Assembly (NCBI GenBank): GCA_963729045.1
Contig: CAVSMN010000008.1
Span: 36,444 to 100,443 of the forward strand
Length of the DNA: 64,000 nucleotides
Origin: an uncultured Nitrososphaeraceae archaeon
Lineage (GTDB): Archaea; Thermoproteota; Nitrososphaeria; Nitrososphaerales; Nitrososphaeraceae
Reading direction: 5' to 3'
Each line of letters opens with the position of its first letter. Position 1 is the stretch's first letter. A program made the position numbers and the translations under genes. Under the pieces are notes generated by a model. It ran no database searches. It was not told where the DNA came from and was given only the letters and a program-made list of their open reading frames with translations. This document shows positions 11,195-60,105 of this stretch, in pieces.

Positions 11195-11237
11195 GAATTC
11201 ATGATTTTACGGCATGGGTTCGAGTCCCACTCCAGGT
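11195..11237 (+). repeat. Family A site A1 (tRNA T-arm-like att site)
   Basis: GAATTCATGATTTTACGGCATGGGTTCGAGTCCCACTCCAGG. Confidence 0.8.
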
Positions 11238-11278
11238 TCACTTAGTATTTCAGACGACTATCCATATTCCGAAGTATA

Positions 11279-11314
11279 AACCCATGACTACCTGGCATGT
11301 AAACAAATCCCATC
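11279..11314 (+). repeat. Family B site B1
   Basis: AACCCATGACTACCTGGCATGTAAACAAATCCCATC. Confidence 0.8.
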
Positions 11315-11340
11315 ACCTCCTTAAATTAATAAGTTTATTA

Positions 11341-11389
11341 GTTGGATCCGCGATTATACGGTAAGGATTCGAGTCCCAAAACTTCATCT
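11341..11389 (+). repeat. Family A site A2
   Basis: GTTGGATCCGCGATTATACGGTAAGGATTCGAGTCCCAAAACTTCATCT. Confidence 0.8.
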
Positions 11390-11497
11390 ACTTAATTTTT
11401 CGGTGTATTTTTTGTGTTAATGATTTATTCATGTAGCTTTCTCTTTCAATTTAACAGATAAATAATTTGTAATTTATTCATAGATGATAACGGCTTC

Positions 11498-11686
11498 ATG
11501 AAAATGGTAAAAGCAAATGACGTCCATATTGAAGTAGCGTCATTAGAAGATATAAAAGAAATATTTACCGGATACAAAAGTATTAAAAATATTTACCTGT
11601 ACCAAAAACATGGTTATCATGAATTTAAAAGACTGTCCTTAGATGATTCGCCTGTAATGATATTTTTGGAGAAAAATGTAAGCTAG
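11498..11686 (+). pseudogene. GNAT acetyltransferase relic (internal deletion)
   Basis: N-terminal IEVASLED joined directly to C-terminal FTGYKSIKNIYLYQKHGYHEF. Confidence 0.55.
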
Positions 11687-11688
11687 AA

Positions 11689-13200
11689 ATGAAAAAATCA
11701 TCTTTTTCGTCTTGGAAGCTCCTTTTGATTTTGAGCTCTATCTCCATTTTGGTAATGTATGTAGAAACAATGTTATTACCTGCAATCCCAGACATCATTA
11801 GAGAGTTTAATATTTCTTATAGTATGTCCTCTTGGATATTTGCATCATTTGTAATATCTGCATTGATTTCTACAACCATAGTGTCAAAGCTATCCGATTT
11901 GTACGGACGGAAACTTATTCTTTTGACAGTATTAGTAATTTATACAGTGGGAATTCTTGGTGGTTCTTTAGCTAATGATATTTTTTGGTTAATCTTTTTC
12001 CGTATAATACAAGGTATTGGGATGTCTGTATTTCCCCTAGTTTTTGCAATTATCCAAATTGAAATTCCAAAAGACAAAATAGCTATAAGTCAAGGAACAC
12101 TGGCATCTATGTTTGCTTTCGGAGGAGTATTAGGATTAATGATTGGGGGAAATATTACACATAATTTTGGATGGCACATGACCTTCTTATCTATACTTCC
12201 GTTTACAATTATTGTAACCATCGTGATAAAGTATTTTGTCAAAATAAAAGATAAATCTCCCGTTGTGAAGGAAGCCAACAAATGGGAGTTATCTAATGAT
12301 ATTACAAATCTCAGCTCAAATCATAGGTATACAAAATCCCATAAAGTAGTTTCAAATTTTGATATTAAAGGAACCATCACCCTTGCTGTTACTATCATAT
12401 CATTTATTTCAGCACTAACATTGGTTCAATCAGAAAATAATGAAAGTGTGAAATCAGGTATATCAATTTCGACCTTATTGTTCGCATTGAGCGGTGTATC
12501 ACTGTTTGTTTTCATATTGCTCGAACGAAAAGTATCTGTTCCTCTAATTAATCTTCAATTGCTAAAATTAAAACCGATATTTCTAACAAACATCATCATA
12601 CTTATCTGGGGAATAGCTACATTTACCATTTTTCAAACTATACCAGTGCTTGTGAGGACTCCTCAGCCAATAGGTTTTGGGGGAAGTGCTTTAGATGTTG
12701 TCTACCTAACACTTCCATTTTCCATCATGTCATTGATATTTGGACCTACATCTGGTTTCATAATATCAAAAATTGGATCATTTAGGGTAATTATAGCAGG
12801 ATCAATAATAGCAACGATTGGATTTGGCAGTATTTTATTACTTTATAATAACCTTGTATGGACCGCGATAAGTCTCGCAATAATAGGTTCGGGATTATCT
12901 TTGTTAAATGTAGGTCAAATAAACATAAACACTGCTTCTACACCCATCAAATTCATAGGGATATCTTTTGGAGTAAATACATTATTTAGATTTATAGGCT
13001 CTGCTATAGGACCAGCTCTTGCAGGAATGTTAATGCAAATAAATCAAACACCTTTAAAAGTAGATGTTGCCACCAATATGACTAATTTTCCCTCATCTAA
13101 TTCATTTATGCAAATATTTCTTTGTATGACGCTGTTGTGTATTATTTCCGTGATACTATCTATTATGCTAAAAAAAGATGAATCTAAAGAAAGAGCTTAA
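11689..13200 (+). CDS. MFS transporter, DHA2 (EmrB/QacA-like)
   Basis: 503 aa, about 14 TM, SKLSDLYGRK motif A, RIIQGIG. Confidence 0.92.
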   Translation: MKKSSFSSWKLLLILSSISILVMYVETMLLPAIPDIIREFNISYSMSSWIFASFVISALISTTIVSKLSDLYGRKLILLTVLVIYTVGILGGSLANDIFWLIFFRIIQGIGMSVFPLVFAIIQIEIPKDKIAISQGTLASMFAFGGVLGLMIGGNITHNFGWHMTFLSILPFTIIVTIVIKYFVKIKDKSPVVKEANKWELSNDITNLSSNHRYTKSHKVVSNFDIKGTITLAVTIISFISALTLVQSENNESVKSGISISTLLFALSGVSLFVFILLERKVSVPLINLQLLKLKPIFLTNIIILIWGIATFTIFQTIPVLVRTPQPIGFGGSALDVVYLTLPFSIMSLIFGPTSGFIISKIGSFRVIIAGSIIATIGFGSILLLYNNLVWTAISLAIIGSGLSLLNVGQININTASTPIKFIGISFGVNTLFRFIGSAIGPALAGMLMQINQTPLKVDVATNMTNFPSSNSFMQIFLCMTLLCIISVILSIMLKKDESKERA

Positions 13201-13302: not shown

Positions 13303-13416
13303 TGGAAACCCGTGAAATCAAGAGACGAGTTCAAATTCCATTCCCTCCATTTGATGGGTTGTTTAACAGAAATAGATTCCCTGTTTTTATATCAGAGTTT
13401 CGAATTCCTCTCTTGG
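13303..13416 (+). repeat. Degenerate family A sites (A3a 13303-13350, A3b 13374-13416)
   Basis: GGAAACCCGTG...GACGAGTTCAAATTCCA; AGATTCCCTGTTTTTATATCAGAGTTTCGAATTCC matches the left arm of A4. Confidence 0.55.
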
Positions 13417-13658
13417 TTACGAAGTTTTCCTAATTAATACGCAAATCCGCTTAAAGGCTACACTTTAAACCAAATATTACAATTGGGCGCCGCATTGGTT
13501 GCTGTTCTTTTTATGATCATCCATAAATTGAAACAAGTTAGTCAGGCTAGTGAGGTTACAAGAAGGAGCATAGCGGGTTCAGACCCGAAACCTCGCATAT
13601 TTAATGTGCTTAAAACATGCGAATTGTTGACAAAAACCTTATCTATGTATGATTTTAT

Positions 13659-14888
13659 TTGGAGTATAAAGGGTTACTCAATACGGACTTGCAATCACAA
13701 AAATACTCATTCATAGCTTTTGCTTCAGCTAGTATTATTTTTGTGTTGTTATTGATATTAAACCCCTGTTCGCCCTTTCATGAGGCTTTTGCTGCACCGC
13801 CTGCGTTTGATCAAGTCTTAATTTATGATAAAAATATCAGCGATCAGAAAAACGACTGGGTTCAAACCTATGGTAATGATAGTGCTAATTTAAGGTCCGA
13901 CCCTGCAGACCTACTGGCAGTGGATTATTTTAGTGATGGAAAAACTCTAGATACTACATTTTGGGTGAAATCAAATTCGGAAAATGCTTCTGTATACGAT
14001 CAACCTTTCAAAAAGATTAGGTATGGTGTGCTTATTGCCATTGTTTCCTTGCCTCAAAATTCAGGATATAACGGAGCCAATTTCAACTATTATGTTGAAG
14101 CAGCTAATGGAAAATGGAGTGAATATCTTTACCAGTTATCATCAACAGGTACTTCTGCGCTTATAGAATCCAAGATAAACTATACTGAACCTTTCGATAA
14201 TCCCAAAATAGGGCCAGGATATGTCAAACTGCTATTGAACCTGGATTCTATAAATTCCCCAAGCAATTACGGCTTATCTTTTTATACAGCAGAATCCTTC
14301 AAGTCAAGCGAAGTCAGGGATTTCACAAGCTGGGTTGCTGTTCCTCCACCTGTCATAGACATATTAACACATCCCGAGAGTATAGTCATAAGACAAGGAG
14401 AAAAGAAAATAGTACCGACTGAGATAGAGACACCCCTCTCTAGTAATGTTACTAGTATAACTTTTGAACATGGCACTAATTTCAGCTCTAACGGCTTAAG
14501 TGTATCTGCCCAAAGAATCCAGCCCCCATTATTTGAGGTAGAGGTTTCTCCACAATCACCAGTAGGTGTGTATACTGTACCTTTTGAGGCTTCAATGTTA
14601 GTACAAACAACATCGTCGACAGCGCCTATGTTTAATGAAACAGTAACTGGAATTGTGGACCCAGAGTTTCAAGTGTCCAAAAAGTATCCAACTACCGGCG
14701 ATATAATAGGTAAAGGTAATTTAACAATAGAGGTACTACCGCCACTAACTGTTAATGAGGGATTTATGGCCTTTTGGAATACATACGGGACTGCAATAGT
14801 GATTCTCGGCAGTGGGGCAGCTGGAGTCTTTGCGACATTTTTTATTGATTATATGAAAAGTCTGAAAAGCAAAAGGAAACACAAATAG
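13659..14888 (+). CDS. Secreted/membrane-anchored hypothetical protein
   Basis: 409 aa, N-terminal hydrophobic segment, beta-rich body, C-terminal TM plus basic tail. Confidence 0.8.
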   Translation: MEYKGLLNTDLQSQKYSFIAFASASIIFVLLLILNPCSPFHEAFAAPPAFDQVLIYDKNISDQKNDWVQTYGNDSANLRSDPADLLAVDYFSDGKTLDTTFWVKSNSENASVYDQPFKKIRYGVLIAIVSLPQNSGYNGANFNYYVEAANGKWSEYLYQLSSTGTSALIESKINYTEPFDNPKIGPGYVKLLLNLDSINSPSNYGLSFYTAESFKSSEVRDFTSWVAVPPPVIDILTHPESIVIRQGEKKIVPTEIETPLSSNVTSITFEHGTNFSSNGLSVSAQRIQPPLFEVEVSPQSPVGVYTVPFEASMLVQTTSSTAPMFNETVTGIVDPEFQVSKKYPTTGDIIGKGNLTIEVLPPLTVNEGFMAFWNTYGTAIVILGSGAAGVFATFFIDYMKSLKSKRKHK

Positions 14889-15121
14889 ACACAAATCCAT
14901 TAGTAACCTAACTCGAGGGGACCATAATATCTGGATGATTTGCTGAATGCAACCTTATGTTTAAGGTCGATTGGAATAACCCTCTTTCCTTCCTTGGACA
15001 AGAATCTGAAGAGCCAAGTACATTATTTTGGATTTAATTTGTTTTCTGTTTTCTTTCGTGCTCCTGATGGTCACCTTACAGAATATTTGGACATGCTAAA
15101 TGAAGAGCCAAAGCCCTTCTC

Positions 15122-15623: not shown

Positions 15624-15672
15624 AGATTCCCTGTTTTTATAGCAAGGCTTCGAGTCCCCCAACTTCGTCTGG
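15624..15672 (+). repeat. Family A site A4
   Basis: AGATTCCCTGTTTTTATAGCAAGGCTTCGAGTCCCCCAACTTCGTCTGG; the next ~45 bp also match those after A7. Confidence 0.8.
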
Positions 15673-15909
15673 TTTTGTATTGTTCAACTTATCAAGTTCT
15701 TGTTTCTTAAGAAAAAAATTTACTCTACTTAGGTATAACAGATCGAATGTAATTATCCCACTTTTTACATTGGATCGGACTTATATATCTAAGAATCATG
15801 TACCCTGTAGATATCGTATAGATATAAGATAGATAGTAAAAAAGAAGTTCATTTTTCTGCTAAAAAACTTGCAACTGATGAAATAGTTTGGTATACTATT
15901 TTCTAATAT

Positions 15910-16356
15910 ATGAGACTTGGATCAACTGTATTGGCTGTTGCTTTGGTACTATTTGGTCTCTTGGCTATATACAGTTTATCGATATCAGATTTGTTATCCA
16001 AGGTTAATTCCTTTGTTTATAACGATCATGAAAAACCCGAAATACACTACTATGCAGATAGAATGTCTACCGCCCAGGAACCATTAGATAATACTCTGGT
16101 AGAAATCGTAAAGAGTTTTAAGAATTCTTCGGGATTTTACAAAATAAATGGAACTTTAGAAAATCAAGGTGCAATAATTCTTTCAGATATCCAAGTTATA
16201 AAATATTATAAAGTTCCTTCAGTGAATGATACTACTTTGATATGCTATGAGCAAAATATTGTAAATTGCCAGTACAAGTTAAATGATCCTCAGTTACCTT
16301 CCAAAGGTTTTTTCTTAATGATGCCGCCAGCACCACCAGAAATAAACATCAATTAG
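15910..16356 (+). CDS. Hypothetical protein with N-terminal TM/signal
   Basis: 148-aa ORF, hydrophobic N-terminus. Confidence 0.65.
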   Translation: MRLGSTVLAVALVLFGLLAIYSLSISDLLSKVNSFVYNDHEKPEIHYYADRMSTAQEPLDNTLVEIVKSFKNSSGFYKINGTLENQGAIILSDIQVIKYYKVPSVNDTTLICYEQNIVNCQYKLNDPQLPSKGFFLMMPPAPPEININ

Positions 16357-16449
16357 ACTTGATGACTTTATCATTTCATAAAAAAATGAGATCGTATGCT
16401 TTATAGATTAACATATCTATCTTAAAGTCTAATAAATATGCTAGATTAG

Positions 16450-16779
16450 TTGCCTAATCCTCCTCATACACAATCACAATTCCTTTATCTAACGACTAAA
16501 GGATGGAAATCAGGAAAATTACATAAAATAGAAATTTGGTTTGTTGAGCAAAATAAGAAATATTATGTTTTATCAGAGTATAAAAAGAAAGTACACTGGG
16601 TTCAGAATATCCTTCACGATCCTACCATATCTTTTCATGTAGATAATCAATCATTCCACGGTTATGGACGGGTAATTGAAGATGCTGTAGAGACAGATTT
16701 GATTAATAGAATTTCACAGATGATGGATAAGAAATACGGATGGAGCGATGGATTAATAGTGGAATTATGTTCTTCATGA
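16450..16779 (+). CDS. Deazaflavin (F420)-dependent nitroreductase-like / split-barrel protein
   Basis: LYLTTKGWKSG..HKIEIWF, HWVQNILHDP. Confidence 0.75.
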   Translation: MPNPPHTQSQFLYLTTKGWKSGKLHKIEIWFVEQNKKYYVLSEYKKKVHWVQNILHDPTISFHVDNQSFHGYGRVIEDAVETDLINRISQMMDKKYGWSDGLIVELCSS

Positions 16780-21423: not shown

Positions 21424-21581
21424 CAAGCAAAGAAATTCAGAAATTGGCTAGAGTTCTACTCTGTATTATTATTGACCATATATGATACATCTGATCTGAT
21501 GTATTTCGTAGTTTTTGAGTTATTAATTTTTCCAATTATGGAGAGCACTTGTCGCAGCATAATGTACACTCATTATGTCCA

Positions 21582-22841
21582 TTATTTGACATAAAGAACA
21601 CTTGTGGAATTAGGCTTTAATTGATCAATGGTAATTATTGTCTTGTCCTGCTCGTCATAAACCACATCTTCTTTTACTAACTGTAGTACCTTGTCTACTT
21701 TAAAAGAGATTTCTTCAATCAACTCATTGCCTGATTTTATAGTTATCTTTTGACCTGTAATTGCAATATTAATTTTTTTTATCTTTCTTATTCGTTGGTA
21801 TAAATCGAAGAAAGTTGTCTTCCATGAAAAGGGAATTTTATTGAACAGATGTAAAATTTGATTCCACTGTTCAAACAAGTTTTTTCTAGTAATAGAATCA
21901 TGATTCCAATCATAAAAATAATGATGATAGTGGTTTAGAATACCTAGAGGTGTTCTTTGAACCATGGAATAAGAGATGGTATTGGATATCCATTTTACAA
22001 ATGTTTGTGAAGATTCTTGTTCTTTTTCTGCATTTTTATTGGAATTTGATATAGGATTTATTTTTAGCCTTCTAGGGATATATAGCATTATTCCCTGACT
22101 ATGCTTGTTATTATAGTAATCGACATTAGACATGATAAAGGGAATAATAAATCCCACATTGGCAAATTTTTTTAAAAGTTTACTTGCAAAATATTTTTTA
22201 AAATAACTGGGAACGTATGATGATCTAAAAAATCTATGGTAGTTTGATTGTCCATAGATAGGAATCATGCCAAGACTTGATAGGAGATTTAGATTGTGCG
22301 TAGAAAAGTCATCAAATGGAGGAACAAACAAAACTGGATTAATATCAAAGGATTTTCTTATTATATCCCTTCCAATATTTACATAGGATTCAAAGCCTAT
22401 CTTGTTGTTCTTTTCATAACCATCAGTATTTAGTGACCTGTAATAATGAGTAAATGTATCTTTTATAGTTCTGTTTATATCTTCACTCTTTCCGTCAATC
22501 TGCTGACTAAACTCTCCTCGACCATCAATTAAATCATGAGTTACACCATGTTGAATAATCTCAATCTTACTGTGTCTGATCTTTTCTTTTAAAAATGTGC
22601 ATAATTCTTCATTGTTCTCAATGGAATGATGTTCTGGAGAGTTCCTGAAATCAGGTGGGACACAAGCATCATTAATTGTCTTTTGATAAGGTATCACAGA
22701 TAGACTTACTTTGAATTGATTATTCCATGCGTTAGAATATATTGATTCGAGCATATTGCTTTTTGTAAAAAAATTAGTATCATCATCTCGAATTAAAATA
22801 GGAATTTTACCGTTGGGTCCTAGTAGTGGAGTAATCGTCAT
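21582..22841 (-). CDS. DUF2334 / polysaccharide deacetylase-like protein
   Basis: LIRDDD, SLSVIP, EIIQHGVTH, GEF, LFVPPF. Confidence 0.8.
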   Translation of the reverse strand: MTITPLLGPNGKIPILIRDDDTNFFTKSNMLESIYSNAWNNQFKVSLSVIPYQKTINDACVPPDFRNSPEHHSIENNEELCTFLKEKIRHSKIEIIQHGVTHDLIDGRGEFSQQIDGKSEDINRTIKDTFTHYYRSLNTDGYEKNNKIGFESYVNIGRDIIRKSFDINPVLFVPPFDDFSTHNLNLLSSLGMIPIYGQSNYHRFFRSSYVPSYFKKYFASKLLKKFANVGFIIPFIMSNVDYYNNKHSQGIMLYIPRRLKINPISNSNKNAEKEQESSQTFVKWISNTISYSMVQRTPLGILNHYHHYFYDWNHDSITRKNLFEQWNQILHLFNKIPFSWKTTFFDLYQRIRKIKKINIAITGQKITIKSGNELIEEISFKVDKVLQLVKEDVVYDEQDKTIITIDQLKPNSTSVLYVK

Positions 22842-23069
22842 CTATTGCTAAAGAAATCATTAATGCTTTTAAATCGTCCATTATCATCATACTCTAATGG
22901 ACCATGTTTATATCAGATAATCATATCATATCATCAGTTTTTGAGGGCTATCTATTTTTACTTCCTACAAGTTGCTGAAATAAATTAAAAATGAATAGTT
23001 AAGGAAATGACATATCTCATAAATCAATATGTCTAGTATGCGATGTTAAATTAAGGAATTTTTAAAAAA

Positions 23070-23345
23070 ATGAATTCTAATCATGTAAAGCGAATTGATT
23101 TCACTAAATCGGTAGAATATGATGATAAGGAGGATGTTTATTATGTGAAATCGGTTACTTCAGGAGAGAGATATAAGGTTAATAAATTAAAGGATAATAA
23201 CCATTGGTTTTGCACATGTAAAGGATATTTGTATTCGGCTGGAAACCCCAAGAAATGCAAACATACTCAAAGAATTAGAGTTATTGATCAGTTGTATAAA
23301 AAATATGCTGATAAGATTACAAACTTCGAATTAAAAGATAGATAA
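23070..23345 (+). CDS. SWIM zinc-finger protein
   Basis: WFCTCKGY...KCKH. Confidence 0.75.
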   Translation: MNSNHVKRIDFTKSVEYDDKEDVYYVKSVTSGERYKVNKLKDNNHWFCTCKGYLYSAGNPKKCKHTQRIRVIDQLYKKYADKITNFELKDR

Positions 23346-23428
23346 TTGATCTTCATTAATGTGAACGTTATAGACGTCTATTAATTTTTTATATGGAGAT
23401 TCTGCCTCGGTTACATAACTAAACCTTA

Positions 23429-23624
23429 CAAAAGATCTATAGTTGATTCATGATTTAGATAGGTATTGTTTTTTTGCACAGGATTATAATCAACCTTGAA
23501 CCGTATCCCCACGGGCCCGGACCTTGAAAGATCTATAGTTAATTCATGATTTAGATAGACATTGTTTTTTTGCACAGGATTATATTCAACCTTGAACCGT
23601 ATCCCCACAGGGCCCGGACCTTGA
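23429..23624 (+). repeat. Tandem duplication of a ~96-bp unit, each ending in a family C site (C4, C5)
   Basis: 2x AAAGATCTATAGTT..TTCATGATTTAGATAG...GCACAGGATTATA.TCAACCTTGAACCGTATCCCCAC(A)GGGCCCGGACCTTGA. Confidence 0.92.
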
Positions 23625-23660
23625 TTAGTCAACCAGTTGAAAGAGTAGGAGGCTTTTTTT

Positions 23661-23710
23661 GTTGGAACCCACGTCAGAAAGACGTAGATCCGAGTCCCAC
23701 TCCCGGCGCC
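23661..23710 (+). repeat. Family A site A5 with tRNA-Ser-like 3' end (att-like)
   Basis: GTTGGAACCCACGTCAGAAAGACGTAGATCCGAGTCCCACTCCCGGCGCC; no D or anticodon arm upstream. Confidence 0.85.
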
Positions 23711-23773
23711 TAAAACAGGGAATCATACCATATTTTTATATAATTTGACGAATATCATCAAGTTATTAGTAAA

Positions 23774-24022
23774 TTGTCAGATGTGGTCGATCAAATAACT
23801 TTAGGATTATCTAGACCTTATTTTCGTAACATCCTAAAGAAATTACGTGAAAACAACCAAGAAAATGCATACACAATATGTAAACATATTCTAACTGAAC
23901 AAGCCGAATTTAATATCAAGAATAGCACAAAGGAGGGAAAATTAGGATATTGGTACGGCTCTCAAACTTTTTTGACGATAGAAAAAGATACCAAGACATG
24001 ATCAAAGAAGATATTTTTTTTA
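23774..24022 (+). pseudogene. Truncated N-terminus of a Nitrososphaerales-type tyrosine integrase
   Basis: DQITLGLSRPYFRNILKKLRENNQENAYTICKHILTEQAEFNIKNSTKEG then, after a frameshift, KIRILVRLSNFFDDRKRYQDMIKEDI; recognised from recall of the family, catalytic domain absent. Confidence 0.6.
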
Positions 24023-24194
24023 TATTGATTGACTGATTGTGCCAATATTTGTCTATATTATGAAATACTTACAGGTATAAAAATACTAAATTTCAAAAAG
24101 AAAGTTTGTTTATTCTCATATTGAAATGGTAACTTTTCGTTGGTCAACTTTAAAATGTATTTTTTTAGTTCGGTTTTCATTTGTTTTTATAAAA

Positions 24195-25792
24195 TTATTT
24201 TTTTAAAGGTAAACTAAAACTAAATGTAGCACCATTACCGTCCCTATTGTTTTCAGCCCAAATCTTTCCGCCATGAGCTTCTATTATGCTTTTTGATATA
24301 TACAAACCCAAACCAGTTCCAATAAATGAATTTGAAACAAATTTTTTAAATAAATATGGCATTATTTCCAGATCAATTCCTAATCCTGTATCTATTACGG
24401 CAATTACGACTTCGCTATTATTTTTTTTCTCCATTGTTACAGCTATCGATCCTTTTGTTGTAAACTTTATTGCATTATTTACAAGATTTGACAATACTTG
24501 AGTTATTCTATTTTTGTCTCCTTTTACAACTACGTGACCCTTTGGTGACATCTTTAATTTACCATCGTCATTTTCTTTATTGTTAAAGTCATTTTTACAT
24601 ACAAATAATACATTTTCTTTCTTTTTTTCCATATCTATTGTACAATCATTTATTGTATTTGATATGACGTCAAGAAGATCAAATTCTCCTATGTCAAGCT
24701 TCAATTCATTACTTTCAATTTTAGTTACATCTAGAATATCGTCGGTCAGTTTTTGTAACCTTCTTGCATTTCTATATATGATTGACACACCACGTTCTAT
24801 TTCTTTCATATCAACATGTTTTTTATTTTGAAAATCTCCATTAAGCATTCCTGAAAGCCCGATAATTGGTTGAATCGGTGTTCTCAATTCGTGAGCAGAA
24901 ATGTTTAAGAATTGATCTTTCATCTTTTCTGCTTCTTTGACTTTTATATATTGATTTCGTATAAGAGCATTGCTTTTTTTTAAATTCTTGGTATAGTGTA
25001 TACTAGATAAAGCAAGTGCTATGATGTTGACAAAATATCCCGCATCTTTAATCACATGAGCTAGGTTATGCGCAGTATCAAAAGAAACGGCAGAAAAAGA
25101 CATTATGATTTGAGCGAATATGTCAATTATGAGATAAATAAGAATACCTTTATAAAGAACGTCTTTTTTTAGGTAAAGTCGTTTTTTATAGAAAAAGAAC
25201 AAAGCAAGGACAAACAATATCAGAGGTGGAATCTCATAGGGCCTATGAACGGAGTAATCATCTAAAACAGAGGCAGGAAAGACCAAAAATAGTGAGCTCA
25301 AAGCAATACTAGATGCCAATACACCTAAAATTATTATATATAGAATGGAGTTGTCTATTATATTTTTTTTAGATTTTTAGAGGGGTTGATCTTTTGATCA
25401 GTATCATACTGTTTATCAAGATTGACAAGGTCTTCTTCTTCTTCTTTAGATGTGTATGAATATTTCACTACTGCAATTAAGAGCATAGCGCTGAGAAAAA
25501 ATCTTCCTGCAAACCATGTTTGAGGAATGAAATACTTCAAGAAATCAATATTTTCAATTAGTGTTATTGATACTATTACGTGTAACATATCAATTAATCC
25601 GCTAATTAGAAATCCGATACCAACAAAAAGGCTAAAATTGTCCTTTAAAACTCTTGCACGCAGAATATAATAGAAAGCTAATGCTGAAACTAAAATAACT
25701 GCAAATAATTCAATATAAAAATGATGGATTTCTGATGCCACCCACAAAAAAGGATCAAAAGATATGATAGTTAGTATTATGAGAGGTATCAT
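24195..25792 (-). pseudogene. Membrane sensor histidine kinase (MASE3-like N-terminus), split by one frameshift
   Basis: SAHELRTPIQP, QVLSNLVNNAIKF, DTGLGI, GTGLGL; adding one A to the A8 tract at ~25363-25370 joins ORFs 25358..25792 and 24195..25319. Confidence 0.85.
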
Positions 25793-25892
25793 AGGTAAGA
25801 GCGTAAATTTGACTAATACTCTAAAGAATACTGAATTATTGTTATGGAATAAACTTTTATGAATCGTTATAAACAGAACTTATTTCTATTGA

Positions 25893-27071
25893 TCAATCAT
25901 TTATTATTGATTTTATTTTTAATATGAAATCTTCTGGTTCTATGGGCTTTCTAATGATCTCTTTCATGTTTATTCCAGGAACCGACTCTATTAATTCGTG
26001 TACAACATCCAGTGCTGATATCAATAAAATTTTCGCATAGGGATTTATTGCTCTTAGTTTATGATAAAGCTGAATACCATTTATTCCAGGCATTCGAATG
26101 TCCATCAGAATCAAATTATAAAAGTAAGGGCTTTTCTCTGTAAAATGTGTAAAAGCTTCAATTGAATTTGAAAAAGCCTTGACTTTATAACCTTGTCTAT
26201 TTAAAAGGGTAGTAAAGGTGTAAAGAATATCTTCTTCATCGTCTATTATTAGAATATTGATAATGGTGTTAGCAATAGGTTTTGATAAATTATTTTTCTT
26301 TAGTGTATTTTGTATTTCTCTGTAGTCAAGTATAGTTTTATTCCTTTGAATTTCATCTAGTATACTTACAGAATACAAACAATCAAAATTTTTAACGGAT
26401 TTGATGTTATTAAAGCCATTATTTTGTAGATTTACCTTATGTATAGCATAGTTGTTAATGAATTGAGATTTACTAACTCTATAATATAGTTTTTCCCCAA
26501 TCCACAATTCTTTTGAAGACACAAAATTATTCATTTTTGAACATTCATTAATAACTGATCCAAACAAGTCAACTTCATTAGAATTATCAGACATTGCTAT
26601 TTCCACCTCTCCATAATCCATACAGATTCTATAATTGATAGGCTGCAATTCATTCTCGCATAACTGACTATCTAGTATACTACTGGATGAAAGCATTCTC
26701 ATTCCACATTCAAATACTTCATGAAAGGCCGGCTCGTTGGTTTCGTCACAAGTTTTGGGAAAATAGAAAAACAGACTATCCCCAATATTTTTAATAACCT
26801 TTCCATTGCAATTATTGATTACAGATGACATTGTATTAAGAAATAACGAATAATATTTTCTCAATTTAGGTGGACTAGATATTTTTGAGGTTTCATTAGT
26901 TGAATTAACAATATCAATAATGCCTATACAATATTGCTGAGTATAGTTAATGAATTTTATTTGATCATTATCATCTGTAAGATTAGCATTTGTAAGATTA
27001 TCAGGTCTTGATCTAACATAATTATAGGCATCTTTATCATAATCTATACGATTAGAACTTAATACTTCCAA
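25893..27071 (-). CDS. Class III adenylate/guanylate cyclase with C-terminal receiver domain
   Basis: IGIIDIVNST, KNIGDSL, DLFGSVINECSK; then ILIIDDE, LMDIRMPG, RKP. Confidence 0.88.
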   Translation of the reverse strand: MEVLSSNRIDYDKDAYNYVRSRPDNLTNANLTDDNDQIKFINYTQQYCIGIIDIVNSTNETSKISSPPKLRKYYSLFLNTMSSVINNCNGKVIKNIGDSLFFYFPKTCDETNEPAFHEVFECGMRMLSSSSILDSQLCENELQPINYRICMDYGEVEIAMSDNSNEVDLFGSVINECSKMNNFVSSKELWIGEKLYYRVSKSQFINNYAIHKVNLQNNGFNNIKSVKNFDCLYSVSILDEIQRNKTILDYREIQNTLKKNNLSKPIANTIINILIIDDEEDILYTFTTLLNRQGYKVKAFSNSIEAFTHFTEKSPYFYNLILMDIRMPGINGIQLYHKLRAINPYAKILLISALDVVHELIESVPGINMKEIIRKPIEPEDFILKIKSIIND

Positions 27072-27423
27072 TTATCTGCAAATCCTACTATATATCACAC
27101 GGAACTGCTATATATTGTTACATATTGTTATTTGTTCACAATAACAAACTAAGGATTTGTAATTAAATTGTAGTAGTCTTGGGCTCCAGCAATACAATCT
27201 CACACAAACTGATATATTTTTTAACTTTAGTTTATCATGTATTTTCTAAAATTTTCGATTATAAGTTGAAGTCATCGTTATTTCTACCCTGGCATTCCTG
27301 TATTCTAAGAATAATTTTGATTTAGTATCAATATATCTGAATTTGGATGGAGTGACCATCATCATGTCCACTAAGAAGACCTAATTCTTGAATCATTCTT
27401 TCAAATTGTAAAATTTGAAGTAT

Positions 27424-27476
27424 CGAATTTGGAACCCCGTCTGAAAGCCGTAGATTCGAGTCCCAACTTCGTCTGT
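27424..27476 (+). repeat. Family A site A6
   Basis: CGAATTTGGAACCCCGTCTGAAAGCCGTAGATTCGAGTCCCAACTTCGTCTGT. Confidence 0.88.
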
Positions 27477-27481
27477 GTTTG

Positions 27482-28348: not shown

Positions 28349-28498
28349 TTAAAGTACTTACTTCTTATAGTATTTATAACACATAGTTTCGTAGCATTTT
28401 TCTAATCTTTAACAAAACTCGTCATCTAATGGATTGATTTACTTGATTGATATATGTCTAATAAATTCGTCAATCAAAATTAATCACACAATAAGTTT

Positions 28499-28536
28499 AA
28501 CCCATGACTACCTAACACGCAAACAAATCCCATCTC
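28499..28536 (+). repeat. Family B site B3
   Basis: AACCCATGACTACCTAACACGCAAACAAATCCCATCTC. Confidence 0.8.
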
Positions 28537-30337: not shown

Positions 30338-30344
30338 ATCAGCA

Positions 30345-31007: not shown

Positions 31008-31057
31008 GTTGGAACCCACGTCCGAAAGACGTAGATTCGAGCCCCAACTTCGTCTGG
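31008..31057 (+). repeat. Family A site A7
   Basis: GTTGGAACCCACGTCCGAAAGACGTAGATTCGAGCCCCAACTTCGTCTGG. Confidence 0.88.
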
Positions 31058-31104
31058 TTTTTTATTGTTCAACTTAAGTTCCTGTTCCTTAAGAAAAAAA
31101 GTTA

Positions 31105-31270
31105 CTATAAAATATTGCAGAACGGTCTTAACAAACTCTAATATTTATTATTCATATTATTGTATGTACATCAAATATTGACTATTCAAAGCTACAGGTC
31201 GAATCGAATGGCATCAGTTACCGGATGTTACCAATAGTAGATCAATATTTGTTATTCATTCAAACCTTTT
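31105..31270 (+). repeat. ~165-bp duplication, copy 2 (downstream flank and last codons of the aquaporin)
   Basis: Matches 9474-9642. Confidence 0.9.
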
Positions 31271-31949: not shown

Positions 31950-32009
31950 GATTATTTACTAGGAGTTACTTGGATTCACTTTAACTGAACGAAATAAAGT
32001 GCTATTATC

Positions 32010-33778: not shown

Positions 33779-33785
33779 TCAATAG

Positions 33786-36690: not shown

Positions 36691-36739
36691 TAAGACTACA
36701 TGTCTGAAAGACGGAGATTCTAGTCTCAACGTCATTTGG
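36691..36739 (+). repeat. Family A site A8 (degenerate)
   Basis: TAAGACTACATGTCTGAAAGACGGAGATTCTAGTCTCAACGTCATTTGG. Confidence 0.7.
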
Positions 36740-36781
36740 TCTATTTATCATTGAAATATGGAACTGTTGTTGTTATTTGTA

Positions 36782-38023: not shown

Positions 38024-38070
38024 CGAAGTTGGACCCCAAGTCTGAAAAACAGAGATTCGAGTCCCAGCCC
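38024..38070 (+). repeat. Family A site A9
   Basis: CGAAGTTGGACCCCAAGTCTGAAAAACAGAGATTCGAGTCCCAGCCC. Confidence 0.8.
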
Positions 38071-38101
38071 TATCTTTTTTTCGTTTTGTAAATAGAGAAA
38101 C

Positions 38102-40959: not shown

Positions 40960-41010
40960 GTAAGCCACCATGTCTGAAAGACAGAGATTCGGGTCTCCCA
41001 ACTTCGTCTT
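40960..41010 (+). repeat. Family A site A10
   Basis: GTAAGCCACCATGTCTGAAAGACAGAGATTCGGGTCTCCCAACTTCGTCTT. Confidence 0.8.
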
Positions 41011-46241: not shown

Positions 46242-46296
46242 TTGAACCTCAGTTCGAGAGACGTAGATTCATTCCGTTTCCCCCTCCTCCACCCAA
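46242..46296 (+). repeat. Family A site A11 (degenerate)
   Basis: TTGAACCTCAGTTCGAGAGACGTAGATTCATTCC..., CCTCCTCC tail like A13. Confidence 0.5.
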
Positions 46297-46487
46297 CTAT
46301 GTTTGAGTTCCTCTTTGATCACAGAACGGTCGACACAAAATTACAAATGGCATATCTATTCGCCCACTCACTAAGCAGAGCTACAACTAGTTTGAAAGGT
46401 TCATGCTGTTTTGATATACAGTCACAGCACCATCGTACATAATTTTATTGAATTCTTTACCATCATTTATTTTCATACTTTTTCTTC

Positions 46488-52891: not shown

Positions 52892-52930
52892 GAAAAGCCA
52901 CAATTATGCGGTATGGATTAATCTCACTCT
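52892..52930 (+). repeat. Family A site A12 (degenerate)
   Basis: CAATTATGCGGTATGGATTAATCTCACTC versus A14 GATTATATGGTATGGATTCGAGTCTCACTC. Confidence 0.5.
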
Positions 52931-53167
52931 TAATTAAGATCGAGCAAAAGTTTGACACTTAAACAAAGGTTCGATTTTGGTTCTAAATAAATAATGTCAT
53001 CTTTTGTCCTAACTGCCTTTAATCTTATGATGCAATAATAGTTTAATAACTTAAATCCCAAAGGTAGCTGGTACTTTTGATGTTATATAAATTGCTATAT
53101 ATTGGTCATCATTATCAATCAAGTCCATTATTTACTAAATCTATAAATAGTTACGGTCATAATTTAA

Positions 53168-53857: not shown

Positions 53858-53925
53858 TCGATAGAACCCACGCCTTAAAGACACAGATTCCAATCCCATC
53901 TCCTCCTCCCATCCAATAACTTCGT
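53858..53925 (+). repeat. Family A site A13
   Basis: TCGATAGAACCCACGCCTTAAAGACACAGATTCCAATCCCA...AACTTCGT. Confidence 0.65.
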
Positions 53926-54001: not shown

Positions 54002-56437
54002 TTGACTATCAAAGACAATACCGAGAAGGAAAAACCAGGAAAAAGGCATGGAGATGAAGAGAATAAAAAGTCGTCTTACCGATTAATCAAGGAAGATAAA
54101 AATCATAATTCTAATAATCAACATAGCGCTTGTTACGACAAAAATCTCAAAGCTATTAGAAGTGATAAAGATAAAAATAACAATAACTCAATTGGGGAGA
54201 AAACAGTGGTTGTCTATGGCGAGGATAAAACTACGGAATTAATTGTACATACACTGAATAATGCGAAAGATAGGTGGGATAATTACGCTGATTCCCAAGG
54301 GCCTACAGTAGCAATGGGTGTGGAAAAATTGAGGAAAGGCATGAGACATGCATATGAAAGGGGAGTCAAAATCAAATACATTTCTGAGATTACAAAACAC
54401 AATATCAATTATTGTAAAGAACTGATGAAAATAGCTGAGGTGCGTCATGTGGACAATGCGAAAGGGGGTATGGCAGTAAGCGAAAGTGAATATATTGCTA
54501 CAGCTAAATTACAAGAAGCCAAACCTGTGTCCCACCTTATCCATAGTAACGTAATGGAAATAGTGGAGCAGCAGCAGTATGTTTTTAAGAGTCTTTGGGC
54601 CAATGCCATACCCGCAATACAAAGGATTAGGGAGATCGAGGATGGTCATGAGAGAATAGAAACAAGGGTTCTTGATGACCAGGATGAAATAAACGATAAG
54701 ATAAGGTCTTTGAGTAAAGATGGTGAAGAAATACTAATTTGCTCAGATACCGGCTTGCTAAAAATAGTACATGATTGTTTTTTTTCAGTATACCAGGAAA
54801 TAATGGAAAAGTATGACAAGGGTTATCACAAGGGTGTAAGGTGGATCACAGACTTGAGTCGTAGAGAGGACGCCAACGTAGCCAAGTTATTCATGGACAT
54901 TGGCATTAAAATAAGAAGTATTAGAAACCTGCCTCCACCAAACTTCCTAGTAACTGACCGAGTCTTTTTCTCAAACTCTGAAAAAATTGATCACAATCAA
55001 GATAGAAAAACCATTAAGCAGATGTTTACAACAAATGACGTCCTATACATCAACCAGTACAAACTAACATTTGAGGAACTGTGGGAAAATGGCATAGATG
55101 CTATAGACATAATAGAGGACACAGAAAGGGGACTTGATACTGAAAGAGTGGATATCATCTCAAGGTCAAACAACGCGGAAACCGCATATCTTGATCTGCT
55201 GAGATCATCAAATAAAGAGATAATGCTAATACTTCCAACTGTAAACGCGTTTCTAAGGCAGTGGAAACTAGGGGTGTTTGAATTGATAACCCAAGCAGCA
55301 GTGAACAGAAATGTAAAGATACGAATGCTGATCCCTAACAACGAGAAGACAGAGAAATTTGTTGAAAGATTGAAAAAACAAAGTTTGTTGATATACAACA
55401 CAAGTAATAATGACAACAATAACAGCAAGAAAGTTCAGATAAGGCCCACCCAAACTTTAACTGAAACAGGATCCACCATTCTTATAGTCGACAAGAAGGT
55501 ATCACTTGTAATGGAACTAAAGGATGATTCCAAAGAAAAGTTTCATGAAGCCATAGGGATATCGACATATTCAAACAGCAAAGCGGGTGTTTTATCTTAT
55601 GTTTCAATATTTGAGAACTTGTGGAATCAAACCGAAATATATCAGCAGCTAAAAAAAAGTGAAGAGTTGCAGCAAGACTTTATTCGGATTGCTGCTCATG
55701 AATTAAGGAGCCCTATACAACCAATACTGGCAATTTCTGAAATGCTCAAATCAAATGTAAACTCAAAGGAATTAGGAAACTCTCAACAGATTCAGGTGAA
55801 CAGAGAAGAGATAAATGACTATATTGATGCTATTATAAGAAATGCAAAAAAATTGGTATCATTAACAAATAGTATTCTAGATATTACCAGAATAGAAACA
55901 AACTCCTTGACTCTTAGGAAAGAGACCGTTGATCTAAGACTGTTTTTGCTAGAACAGGTGATGGAATACGAAAATCAATATACTAGTAAAATGGAACCTA
56001 TGGACCTGCATAATATAACAAATTGTGACAGATACAAAACTCGCATGGTTTATTCACAATTAAACAATAACATAATTCACGATTCTCTTTTGGTCAAACT
56101 GGACAAGTCAAGGATCGCACAAGTTATTTGCAATTTATTGGATAATGCATTTAAGTTTACAAATGATGGTGACACTATAAATATTATATTAGATATAGAA
56201 TTCATAAATGACCAAAAATGTGTGGTTATATCCATAAGGGACAGCGGGAAAGGCATTGACAGGGAGATACTACCTAAGTTGTTTACCAAATTTACAACCA
56301 TGTCAGAAAAAGGAATTGGCCTTGGATTATACATCACAAAGAGTATCATAGAAGCCCATAGTGGAAGGATTTGGGCAAGGAATAATGAGAATGGAACAGG
56401 TGCCACCTTTTCGTTCACCTTACCATGCGATCCATAA
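54002..56437 (+). CDS. Cytoplasmic sensor histidine kinase (repeated thaumarchaeal N-terminal modules)
   Basis: AAHELRSPIQP, QVICNLLDNAFKF, DSGKGI, GIGLGL; three repeated modules ending in F..LW.N. Confidence 0.92.
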   Translation: MTIKDNTEKEKPGKRHGDEENKKSSYRLIKEDKNHNSNNQHSACYDKNLKAIRSDKDKNNNNSIGEKTVVVYGEDKTTELIVHTLNNAKDRWDNYADSQGPTVAMGVEKLRKGMRHAYERGVKIKYISEITKHNINYCKELMKIAEVRHVDNAKGGMAVSESEYIATAKLQEAKPVSHLIHSNVMEIVEQQQYVFKSLWANAIPAIQRIREIEDGHERIETRVLDDQDEINDKIRSLSKDGEEILICSDTGLLKIVHDCFFSVYQEIMEKYDKGYHKGVRWITDLSRREDANVAKLFMDIGIKIRSIRNLPPPNFLVTDRVFFSNSEKIDHNQDRKTIKQMFTTNDVLYINQYKLTFEELWENGIDAIDIIEDTERGLDTERVDIISRSNNAETAYLDLLRSSNKEIMLILPTVNAFLRQWKLGVFELITQAAVNRNVKIRMLIPNNEKTEKFVERLKKQSLLIYNTSNNDNNNSKKVQIRPTQTLTETGSTILIVDKKVSLVMELKDDSKEKFHEAIGISTYSNSKAGVLSYVSIFENLWNQTEIYQQLKKSEELQQDFIRIAAHELRSPIQPILAISEMLKSNVNSKELGNSQQIQVNREEINDYIDAIIRNAKKLVSLTNSILDITRIETNSLTLRKETVDLRLFLLEQVMEYENQYTSKMEPMDLHNITNCDRYKTRMVYSQLNNNIIHDSLLVKLDKSRIAQVICNLLDNAFKFTNDGDTINIILDIEFINDQKCVVISIRDSGKGIDREILPKLFTKFTTMSEKGIGLGLYITKSIIEAHSGRIWARNNENGTGATFSFTLPCDP

Positions 56438-57944: not shown

Positions 57945-58378
57945 ATCGATTTACAGCATGTTTAAGATACACATTTCAGAAAATAGCTACTTATTATCGT
58001 ATTAGAAAATATTGTTCTTTGCAAACACCACCAGAAGTCGATCATAAAACAGACGGAAAGTTAAGAAAATAAGAGAAACATAAAAGCGATCACTTGATAG
58101 CAACCATCTTAATGTTAGAGAAGATAAGGAAATCAAATCTTGCATAAAATAAGAAAAGGAAAAGGAAAAAAAAATATGAGTTACAGAGAAAATTATTGAA
58201 GAATTACTAAAAATTATAGTTAAATGAATATTGAAAATAAGAGATCTTTTAAAAATCCATCTTTTCTAAACTTGGTAAAGAGGATTAGGATGTTAGAATC
58301 ACTAGCATTCTAAGCTTTAACAGTGACTCCATTGCATCAATTCCTAATAATCCTACTGCAGTATCTTTTAGATCCATG

Positions 58379-58675
58379 TTATGGATTCTTTCTAGAATAC
58401 CAGCCAGTACAGGCGTGCTTTGTCCTCAACTGATTAATACTTTCTTCAACTATTTGGTCAAGATTCTTATCCTCCCCTATGAATGCCAATCTCGTAGCGT
58501 GAGTCTTCAATAGAGTCCTTACAGGATCAACTACTACGAATACGCTAAGGACTTCTTTCAAATCCATGTCCGGAATTCTTTCTAAAATGGCAGTAAAAAT
58601 TGGGTACTTTGTCCTCAACTCATCACTCTGTTCCTTAACCTTCTGAGGGCTGGCATTTTCATTTGAACTAGTCAT
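58379..58675 (-). CDS. Hypothetical protein (possibly C-terminally disrupted, internal duplication)
   Basis: 98-aa ORF with repeated LRTK; a MDLKD.A segment follows the stop. Confidence 0.45.
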   Translation of the reverse strand: MTSSNENASPQKVKEQSDELRTKYPIFTAILERIPDMDLKEVLSVFVVVDPVRTLLKTHATRLAFIGEDKNLDQIVEESINQLRTKHACTGWYSRKNP

Positions 58676-58737
58676 AAGTCACAATCTCCAATCATGGTAT
58701 TTTAAGCTTACTTCTATTGCTATAAGATTGTAGTTTC

Positions 58738-59020
58738 ATGAAATCGGTGATGTTTCTAATTCATCCGAGTTCAAAGACATATGAGGTCTCTTGGTGTTGT
58801 ACCTTGTTATGAATACATCAAAGGATTCAAAGTACATCATATTTGATTGAAATGTCTCGTAGAATCTTTCTATCCTACCATTTGTTTGAGGATGATGTAC
58901 TCTTTCCAAATGTGTTTGATCTTTCTACTGACTGAAATGTATCTATTGCAACTGCTTTAATTTCGCCGGAATTGGCATAGAACTTACCACCCTCCATTGA
59001 TGACGGGAACTCGACCATAG
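58738..59020 (-). mobile_element. IS481/IS3-like transposase (rve) C-terminal relic
   Basis: Manual translation HHPQTNGRIERFYETFQSN...YNTKRPHMSL. Confidence 0.75.
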
Positions 59021-59108
59021 TTTTTTATCTCAAATATGGTAATTAGAAATTGTGCAGCGACATGTTCACAACGACGGATAAATATAAATAGAATGGTAGA
59101 CATTATTT

Positions 59109-59639
59109 ATGAGATTCCAGATGCAATTTTATAAAACAAAACAATGTATTATTCTACCTGTATTAGCCACAATCATCACTTTTACCCTCCTAAGTTTACC
59201 GGGGTTAGGGAACCAATATGCAAACTCCCAATCTAATGAAACAAACTCGACCTCAAATACTACAAGTACTGGCGTTGAGCTGAAAGATATACTTCCCTCG
59301 CCTTTACATTTAAAGTCTGGCAGCAAATTTCAAATTATTGCAACAGTTGTTAATGATTCACCAAATAAGATAACATTTACTGCAGGAGTATGCGATTCAC
59401 CTATATCTGCACAATTTCTCAAAAATGTTGTAATAAGATATATGCAGGGCTGTACTGCAACTTCACCTCCTTTCGAATTACAATCTGGAGAAGAAGTTAC
59501 TGTAGCGGGACCATCTTCTGGCACAATTTATCAAGCATTAGCAGCTGGACAAACAACAGCGAGCGCCACTTTTTATTACCAGACTGAGAATGGACAGGCC
59601 GCAAACATTACACAACCGTTTGTATTCACAATAGGTTAG
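59109..59639 (+). CDS. Secreted hypothetical protein
   Basis: Signal peptide, beta-rich domain with two Cys. Confidence 0.75.
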   Translation: MRFQMQFYKTKQCIILPVLATIITFTLLSLPGLGNQYANSQSNETNSTSNTTSTGVELKDILPSPLHLKSGSKFQIIATVVNDSPNKITFTAGVCDSPISAQFLKNVVIRYMQGCTATSPPFELQSGEEVTVAGPSSGTIYQALAAGQTTASATFYYQTENGQAANITQPFVFTIG

Positions 59640-60044
59640 CATTACCGTCTAAATCCTTTTTTCTATATCTTTGTGGCTTCGCCATGACCTACTGACTCGC
59701 AAAGTTCTTACTCGATAGAAGTAAAACCGACTGTTGTTCCGTACCAATGATCCCAAGTGTACCTGCACCTCGTGTATTCGTCTAACTTTCCCTGCAATCG
59801 AGTACCACATTCGTTAAAATGCTCTTGTCAAACACATTATGTGAAATCTATAATCATAAAATTGGAAATTACGACTAGTTTTTCGATAGGCTAAGAAGAA
59901 AAAACAGGTTTGATTGGATCTACTTACCATTAACTAATGTTATTCTATATTATTTCGGTTGTAAATGCGCTAAAATTTACAAAATATATTCTTTCTAATC
60001 TTTGAAAATTAAGTCAGTTCGGATCCAGAGGTAATTCTAATTTA

Positions 60045-60105
60045 TGAATCTGTGATTATATGGTATGGATTCGAGTCTCACTCCCGAGGCTTAAAACAGG
60101 AATCA
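60045..60105 (+). repeat. Family A site A14 with tRNA-like 3' arm
   Basis: TGAATCTGTGATTATATGGTATGGATTCGAGTCTCACTCCCGAGGCTTAAAACAGGAATCA; downstream flank shared with A5. Confidence 0.8.

Follow-up and report, generated by a model that had tools for sequence, protein, structure and literature searches.

The stretch analysed here, called the window throughout, comprises 64,000 nucleotides of an uncultured Nitrososphaeraceae archaeon (assembly GCA_963729045.1, contig CAVSMN010000008.1, positions 36,444 to 100,443 of the forward strand) and carries an array of 14 short sites, A1 to A14 (family A), which stand downstream of a serine transfer RNA (tRNA) gene and resemble its 3' half. The genome (2.85 Mb in 22 contigs, 33-34% G+C) has tRNA genes with introns. 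It encodes an archaeal AmoA (match E 5e-118), and therefore the host is an ammonia-oxidising archaeon. The tRNA gene that anchors the array lies ~750 nt upstream of the window (C8:35554-35697), starting with GCCGGGG and ending with GTGGG-TTCGAGT-CCCAC-TCCCGGC-G. ARAGORN misses the native gene and calls a tRNA-Ser(cga) with a 30-nt intron in the anticodon loop once ~24-29 nt of the D region are cut out in silico. Therefore, the anchor is a tRNA-Ser(CGA) with two introns. In an Rfam search of the upstream locus only the T-arm was recognised, as a fragment resembling transfer-messenger RNA (tmRNA). The tRNA and its upstream flank are common to this genome and to two relatives, G043 and G001.

The sites share an 11-nt core, TTCGAGTCCCA, which corresponds to the T-loop and the 3' strand of the T-stem. 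With up to one mismatch this motif occurs eight times in the window, always on the + strand, against 0.67 expected and a maximum of four in 100 shuffles; at two mismatches the count (18 against 9.98 expected) is near chance. With a profile derived from the sites, 12 of them (with the core starts given below) were recovered in the window, together with the tRNA gene itself. Two more degenerate copies, near 46268 (A11) and near 52917 (A12), were found by a fuzzy motif search. All sites align to the 3' half of tRNA-Ser(CGA) as diverged copies. The 14 sites read in the same direction on the + strand and reach no further than 61 kb from the tRNA, and the arrays of G043, G032 and G054 are arranged likewise.

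Each core is flanked by a left and a right arm, and both come in several types. The right arm R1, CTCCCGGCG, is the acceptor 3' strand of tRNA-Ser(CGA) itself; R2, AACTTCGTCTG, is an 11-nt sequence that does not belong to the tRNA and is the commonest right arm in the window. The left arm L1 is clean at A5 and A7. A5 (23577..23725) has a conserved L1 module of ~110 bp, a core at 23689-23699 (TCCGAGTCCCA), an exact R1 identical to the tRNA 3' end, and the integrase-side flank TAAAACAGGGAATCA. Directly after its R1 stands the stump of a tyrosine integrase gene (23771..24018, + strand), which matches residues ~37-119 of a 491-aa integrase of G001. A7 (31012..31110) combines an exact L1, a core at 31036-31046 (TTCGAGCCCCA) and an exact R2 with an extended flank, and heads an arsenic-resistance unit with genes for an aquaporin, a low-molecular-weight phosphatase, an S-adenosylmethionine methyltransferase and an HxlR regulator (31263-33775). 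A6 (27431..27476; core 27455-27465) has L1 with a 1-nt deletion and an exact R2, and heads a dioxygenase unit. L1 is degenerate, with 6-8 of 25 positions mismatched, at A8 (36694..36740; core 36718-36728, TTCTAGTCTCA; degenerate R2, ACGTCATTTGG), A9 (38032..38078; exact core at 38056-38066; right arm R3, GCCCTATCT), A10 (40964..41010; core 40988-40998, TTCGGGTCTCC; R2, exact, CAACTTCGTCT) and A13 (53864..53910; core 53888-53898, TTCCAATCCCA; right arm TCTCCTCCTCCC). G043 has orthologous sites of A8, A9 and A13 and none of A10. A11 (46242..46300) is very degenerate and L1-like: GAGAGACGTAGA is followed by TTCATTCCGTT and a C/T-rich arm (profile E 0.38).

L2 is found with 4-6 mismatches at A1, A2 and A14. 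A1 (11189..11243) has a degenerate L2, a core at 11219-11229 and a degenerate R1 (CTCCAGGTTC, 3 of 10 positions mismatched). A2 (11338..11392; core 11368-11378) has a degenerate, R2-like arm (AAACTTCATCT) and heads a unit with a major facilitator superfamily (MFS) transporter gene; the interval between A1 and A2 is a 150-bp unit free of cargo. A14 (60046..60105; core 60070-60080, TTCGAGTCTCA) has an R1-like arm with two mismatches in ten and the flank TTAAAACAGGAATCA. The array ends with A14, and the synteny with G001 and G032 picks up again ~2.7 kb past it. A12 (52895..52935), seen in the fuzzy search only, is very degenerate and L2-like, with AATTATGCGGTATGG followed by TTAATCTCA and a doubtful R1. 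The third left arm, L3, occurs at A4 (15625..15715; core 15649-15659, TTCGAGTCCCC), which has an exact R2 and an extended flank of ~50 nt common to A7, and in a similar form at A3 (13375..13420), where the core TTCGAATTCCT at 13399-13409 is degenerate and the profile match is weak (E 0.024).

At the well-kept sites, the mixture of three left-arm and two main right-arm types described in the first-pass annotation is evident, and the arm type switches inside the 11-bp core as stated there. The assignments at the degenerate sites are looser than had been claimed, and the right arms of A9 and A13 are neither R1 nor R2. The downstream flanks follow the right arm, again as claimed: A5 and A14 have TAAAACAGG.AATCA in common, a diverged form of the integrase-proximal arm located after R1 in G001 and G043, and A4 and A7 have ~45-50 nt in common after R2. 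The position of the sites between genes, their likeness to a tRNA 3' half and the hairpin in the left arms might suggest a role in RNA, as tRNA-like processing or termination signals or as split-tRNA halves between transcription units. We give this almost no credence. L1 breaks the T-stem (GTAGA against CCCAC), R2 contains no acceptor-like sequence, and the sites keep to one strand, whereas the flanking genes lie on both. In addition, neither ARAGORN nor Rfam, the latter at the gathering threshold and also at E up to 10, detected an RNA gene or tRNA-like RNA at the sites in the window. The left-arm hairpins were also considered as mimics of the tRNA variable arm, an idea that was dropped since they are offset by ~5 nt from the tRNA hairpin and broken in A6.

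L1 joined to the core is found in four of 61 genomes of the family, all in one genus (g1). A search with the site pattern gave 121 matches in 29 of the 34 genomes of this genus and none with the reversed control. Among 44 sites in the fetched loci, the tRNA left half is joined to R1 six times and never to R2; L1-R1 occurs twice, L1-R2 seven times, L2-R1 seven times, L2-R2 four times, L3-R2 twice, and L3-R1 and L4-R2 once each, the rest being untypable. The 121 pattern matches include about 7 L1-R1, 11 L1-R2, 22 L2-R1, 8 L2-R2, 13 L3-R1, 12 L3-R2 and 3 L4-R2, so that all six pairings of L1-L3 with R1 and R2 occur in the genus. Other right arms recur as well, CTC(T)CATTTAA ~7 times and GCCCTATCT three times. 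The association between left and right types is weak (permutation p 0.19 in the fetched loci and 0.05 in the hand-typed set). Judged from these sequences, left and right arms appear to assort almost freely across the genus, which supports site-specific exchange.

Intact elements bounded by such sites are present in relatives. In G001, a complete genome, the gene next to the tRNA encodes a 491-aa tyrosine integrase (PF00589); beyond it lie one for a primase-polymerase with a D5-type helicase and then SIR2-like, AAA, subtilase, OLD-TOPRIM and Fic genes. This element ends in an L1-core-R1 site 14.8 kb downstream, the sole site at that locus, and has the 21-bp repeat TTCGAGTCCCACTCCCGGCGC at both ends. 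The layout in G078 is like that in G001 (integrase, primase-polymerase, STAND NTPase), with L1-core-R2 at the far end. Both elements measure 14-15 kb and are bounded by the tRNA on one side and by an L1-core site on the other. Intact integrase elements also stand at other serine tRNA genes, three in all: at tRNA-Ser(GCT) in G001 and in G043, and at tRNA-Ser(GGA) in G032. The integrases of G001, G078 and G080 are PF00589 proteins of 491-499 aa. In G001, G078, G001b, G043b and G032b the integrase gene is unbroken directly after the tRNA, unlike the SSV type, in which integration splits it. In six of six arrays the tRNA left half is joined to R1 and in none to R2, and the tRNA is kept whole. The integrase family was matched, often as fragments, in 29 of 31 genus genomes searched.

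In this genome, the stump at 23771-24018 is the sole trace of the G001-type integrase family in the assembly. Pfam gave no PF00589 match among the 73 open reading frames (ORFs) of the window or in the genome, and scans of 26 unassigned window ORFs with NCBIfam and PHROGs revealed no recombinase. When 19 element proteins were compared with the array by tblastn, the stump was the sole match, and no primase or integrase remnant appeared in the other units. Integrase stumps also follow two sites in G043. The PF16795-type integrases of the genome lie on other contigs (C15, C6, C17 and C11) and show no detectable relationship to that of G001, and on these grounds they were not linked to the array. 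Exact-pattern scans for L1+core and L2+core in a viral contig collection gave no match, and hence no free or viral form was found there.

Sequence comparisons between and within arrays place the ends of homology at the core. In G043rc, the segments 39006-39997 and 54380-55375 are 99.6% identical over a 996-bp segment; the homology begins at core base 1, to the left of which one copy has L1 and the other L3. Conversely, the segments 32457-32557 and 40461-40561 of G043rc are copies of a 101-bp L2 module (98% identity), whose homology stops at core base 10, with R2 to the right of one and R1 to the right of the other. The alignment of the arsenic unit between the window, G063 and G084 also begins at core base 1. 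In 101 alignments drawn from ~470 kb of array sequence, 10 of the 194 starts lie at -5..0 from core base 1 and 12 of the 199 ends at +6..+12, with ~0.25 expected per bin. Homology edges at core bases 1 or 10-11 are thus ~40 times above chance.

The first-pass annotation had set breakpoints spread along the element against breakpoints concentrated at the core, and they are concentrated at the core edges. It had also placed strand exchange at the T-loop, taking its 7 nt as the overlap of a tyrosine recombinase. An overlap of 7 bp and a T stem-loop target are described as established for other integrases in the relevant passages of PMC8371274. Here, the integrase elements, the duplicates ending at the core, the breakpoint excess and the arm assortment all speak for exchange at the core, and the comparisons confine it to the 10-11 shared bases, within which the 7-nt T-loop is a putative overlap. 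Position 6 of the core is G or A. In a hand count, A occurs in six of nine tRNA-Ser(GCT)-type arms and in none of 24 exact R2 arms, and the base tracks the right arm or target and not the left arm. This hints at an effective exchange to the left of position 6, and cores specific to each array would give an equal pattern.

The same comparisons bear on the possibility that site-specific recombination played no part. Segmental duplication or homologous recombination would then have spread tRNA pseudogene fragments, and ordinary divergence would account for the arm combinations. A8, A11, A12 and A13 are very degenerate, and ordinary paralogous duplications do exist in the window (9463-10865 against 29760-31271). 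However, 11 bp are too few for homologous exchange, and still the breaks gather at the edges of the core. The intact integrase elements of relatives are bounded by these sites, the site direction is uniform within the array, and the arms are conserved modules beside unrelated cargo. We therefore regard this explanation as highly improbable.

The sites of family A are very probably attachment-site junctions, produced by repeated site-specific integration of a genus-specific family of integrative elements and by recombination between sites. This reading follows from the integrase elements that lie between the tRNA and an L1-core site in two relatives. The elements would target the T-arm of tRNA-Ser genes by means of a tyrosine integrase of ~490 aa and, since the integrase gene is whole after integration, would be of the non-suicidal type. 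Exchange is thought to take place inside the 11 shared bases. L1 to L4 would be the element-side arms, conserved over 45-125 bp, and R1 would consist of the tRNA 3' end and the integrase-proximal arm. Consequently, each integration or inter-site exchange is expected to make hybrid sites that have the left arm of one unit and the right arm of another. The distal part (A8-A14), which G043 also has, would be old and decayed, and the proximal part (A1-A7) would turn over. The integrase was presumably lost in this genome, as the stump after A5 suggests, and the units between the sites would now be integrase-less cargo of the type known as cis-mobilisable elements (CIMEs), movable only by an integrase supplied from elsewhere.

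Several observations weigh against this interpretation. No recombination was observed, and the assembly, which is 87% complete, contains no intact cognate integrase, so the array in this genome may be wholly static. The site family, the reassorted arms, the breaks at the core, the intact elements of relatives and the varying unit order are seen directly in the sequences, whereas the pairing of enzyme and sites, the positions of cleavage and any mobility today are inferred. The genomes of the genus are kin, and the site counts are not independent events; in addition, the 121 pattern matches were typed by eye. Some homology breaks 45-130 nt to the left of the core, and hence exchange at the core is not the sole process. 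These breaks form a second, weaker class of edges at the borders of the left-arm modules (16 starts at -130..-91 and 5 ends at -60..-31). For example, the MFS units of the window and of G063 are 96% identical until ~45-49 nt before the next core, where L3 replaces L2, and a degenerate site-like box is often present at edges of this kind. Finally, R2 is not a tRNA end. Simple accretion does not predict it because the decay of an element with R1 and an integrase does not yield R2.

The 13 units between the sites of the window range from 0.15 to 8 kb. None has an intact integrase gene, and the A5 unit keeps the stump. They hold from 0 to ~10 ORFs on both strands, with cargo that includes genes for arsenic resistance, transporters, a protease and two-component systems; near-empty units of 76-150 bp exist. 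These units may have arisen from decayed autonomous elements, to judge from the stumps after A5 and after the two G043 sites; the other units contain no such remnants. From 36535 to 63960, a stretch that includes A8-A14, the window is colinear with G043 at ~90% identity, and the proximal part is rearranged. Unit X (13381-14954, just after A3) and unit Y (~15660-16474, after A4) stand in swapped order in G043. Counted from the tRNA, the MFS unit precedes the arsenic unit in the window and follows it in G063:C5, and both units recur at other positions or in other orders in G063, G084 and G032. Copies of one unit end in different left arms and differ in their last ~600 nt.

We also mapped contigs of four metagenome runs from soil, sediment and rhizosphere to positions 21500-41400 of the window. 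In one of these contigs (depth 2.8), 38039 at A9 is connected to 40972 at A10 and the 2.9-kb unit in between is missing. In others, 28534 is connected to 23687 (the A5 core) or 23523 to 31008, and several end at A5 or A10. These junctions are no more than hints of variants, as single low-depth contigs from mixed populations with short sides, and we do not use them as evidence.

The behaviour of R2 raises a further possibility. R2 is joined to L1, L2, L3 and L4; it heads integrase-less units only and is absent from the own arms of the intact elements. It occurs in 17 of 33 other genomes of the genus, against two of 167 genomes from 17 other genera, where a single-copy ancestral locus of R2 had been sought. 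Core and R2 together form an exact 21-mer at 21 places in 13 of the 34 genus genomes, with unrelated sequence directly beyond. We asked whether R2 might belong, as their proper right arm, to elements that have the integrase beside the left arm. An integrase on the left-arm side that reads away from the site is found at three loci (G080:C3, G063:C30 and G063:C21), and the idea is not supported, as the remnant at G063:C30 is headed by an R1-type arm.

R2-headed, L-ended units without an integrase might thus form a cassette system of the integron type, shuffled in trans behind tRNA-Ser genes, with the array as a capture platform and not a graveyard. The composite site would consist of a left arm of 45-125 bp, the 11-bp core and AACTTCGTCTG, and the integrases of co-resident elements would act on it in trans; R2 would keep the units off the tRNA and steer them to secondary sites. 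The broad pairing of R2, the recurrence of the 21-mer, the adaptive cargo of units that have no integrase and the near-empty units are as such a system would have them. In the reordered arsenic and MFS units of G063, G084 and G032 the left break falls exactly at core base 1, and the 99.6% duplicate lies in G043, where those 100 kb contain no PF00589 match. In addition, L1-core-R2 is an imperfect palindrome (8 of 10) around CGAGTCCC, although this symmetry is weakly significant, being reached by 124-162 of 5000 shuffles (~0.03).

Integrons are one-way arrays in which short recombination sites have a conserved crossover core and variable flanks and the cargo is adaptive, and the array resembles them in all of this. 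It differs from them in having no intI-type integrase beside it, no attI, no attC architecture, and multi-gene units on both strands. No recombinase was found beside the tRNA or in the window, where the head of an integron would carry one; the 19.9-kb upstream locus (L001) was covered by the Rfam search only. The attC-like palindrome is confined to L1-core-R2, and dyad symmetry was not found in tRNA-R1, L1-R1, L2-R1, L2-R2, L3-R2 or L4-R2 sites. The units, with 0 to ~10 genes each on both strands, are not single promoterless ORFs in a single orientation. Moreover, the differences in left arm and last ~600 nt between copies of one unit are unexpected if a cassette brings its own site, and the decay of larger elements together with inter-site recombination covers most of the same facts. 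The cassette platform is therefore unlikely; it would be an archaeal functional counterpart of the integron, built from a tRNA attachment site, and would spread genes for arsenic resistance, transport and signalling among soil ammonia oxidisers.

The preferred interpretation, accretion of integrative elements with inter-site recombination, has precedents. In the sections of Krupovic et al. 2019 (PMC6563490) and of a review by Badel et al. 2021 (PMC8371274) that deal with archaeal elements, tyrosine-integrase elements that target tRNA genes are described, and as in our relatives the integrase gene is intact when integrated. The integrated elements of Thaumarchaeota in these sections carry a primase-polymerase gene and target the 3' part of an intron-bearing tRNA, both as here. 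Very short direct repeats are common to them and to this array (median 17 bp, minimum 8 bp in Thaumarchaeota), and the T stem-loop is one of three sublocations for integration within tRNA genes (PMC6563490, PMC8371274). Arrays that result from the re-use of one site are also mentioned for archaeal elements in the relevant part of PMC6563490. The present case differs from archaeal elements in the large number of sites (14 in 50 kb, and ~16 in 65 kb in G043), in that most units lack an integrase, and in the at least four interchangeable left arms and the recurrent right arm that is not from a tRNA.

The ssrA islands of Dehalococcoides, as presented in the portions of PMC3146451 that concern them, are similar in several respects. 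They stand in tandem within 100 kb downstream of one small-RNA gene, with ~20-bp repeats of its 3' end (over a dozen repeats within 100 kb), have the insertion point in the T-loop and a conserved motif beside each repeat, and end in a fixed, syntenic far side, all as here. An integration module is present in 16 of these islands and lacking in 15, and those that lack it were read as possible cis-mobilisable elements (PMC3146451). In contrast to our array, that system is bacterial and uses a serine recombinase and a tmRNA target, and the portions of McMurdie et al. 2011 concerned (PMC3146451) describe neither an alternative right arm like R2 nor a series of swapped left arms. CIMEs of the ICESt1 type are likewise integrase-less units with attachment sites on both sides, which accumulate at a target gene's 3' end through one site-specific integration after another. 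According to the pertinent text of Guedon et al. 2017 (PMC5704250), they are decayed bacterial integrative and conjugative or integrative and mobilisable elements, and composite excision patterns are possible for their accretion. They differ from the units here, which have no conjugation genes and an archaeal host and of which the R2-headed ones are not derivable from R1-integrase elements by simple deletion. By this comparison, the phenomenon matches a known class, tandem accretion with cis-mobilisable units, and would be new in its lineage. We found no description of this array, and 'Nitrosocosmicus', the genus to which this archaeon may belong, is absent from the main text of PMC6563490. 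Integrase-flanked islands are mentioned in PMC13245735, in the main text of which the word tRNA is absent.

The array appears as a hypervariable hotspot of gene capture in a genus of soil ammonia-oxidising archaea, with contents and order that vary between genomes. It also offers a natural data set for a thaumarchaeal integrase, with ~120 sites, at least four left arms, several right arms and an 11-bp crossover core. No thaumarchaeal integrase is among the characterised archaeal tyrosine recombinases in the relevant part of a 2021 review (PMC8371274), and biochemical work was not searched directly. If the integrase-less units are mobile in trans, nitrifiers would exchange genes by a route that annotation pipelines overlook, because ARAGORN misses even the anchor tRNA.

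Further loci of the site family were noted in G080 and in the genome of the window. In G080:C3:180001-236000 (L019/L033/L034), a tRNA-Ser(GGA) contains the core TTCAAATCCCT, and a second copy of its last ~35 nt stands 28 kb downstream, preceded by a further left-arm type; this 28-kb stretch includes an intact gene for a 497-aa integrase, which is directed away from an L2-core-R2 site. With the tRNA-Ser(GGA) locus in G080, the family therefore uses at least three tRNA-Ser isoacceptors. In the genome of the window there is possibly a second array at tRNA-Ser(GCT), which is situated at the extreme end of contig C19 (C19:47418-47502). On the minus strand of C16 (119840-124216), L3-core-CTCCCCGCGC with an integrase-side flank is accompanied by an L1-R2-like site 4.3 kb further on. 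Contig C5 opens with an L2 site (C5:921-974), and the end of C9 (C9:234414-234479) duplicates the A14 site and the start of a subtilase gene. The assembly seems to break at the repeats of the site family, as seen at the ends of C19, C16, C5 and C9.

Other features of the window concern the units themselves. The units between 23689 and 33775 are rich in signalling and resistance genes, with a histidine kinase, a MASE3 sensor, a response-regulator/cyclase fusion, a MEDS-domain protein, a response regulator and the arsenic cluster. Just to the left of the L1 module of A5, a 97-bp tandem duplication (23431-23624, 95% identity) is present, of which one metagenome contig lacks one copy. The segment 33780-35385 is likely a decayed insertion sequence: terminal inverted repeats of ~15 nt, identified by eye, are formed by CTCTTGCGTAATTAA (33788-33802) and its complement (35366-35380), the 1.6 kb between them contain no long ORF, and the depth of metagenome contigs is 4-15 times that of the flanks. 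It stands exactly where the homology of the arsenic unit to G063 and G084 ends. A carbamoyltransferase gene in the unit nearest the tRNA is split over four ORFs (5549-7167; Carbam_trans_N, HypF_C_2 and Carbam_trans_C), which fits decay of that unit. The paralogous segments mentioned above comprise a direct pair (9463-9641 and 31093-31271, 88% identity) and an inverted pair (9788-10865 and 29760-30766, 76-78%). Owing to the latter, the first unit contains a second, inverted copy of the response-regulator and MEDS-domain genes beside A7.

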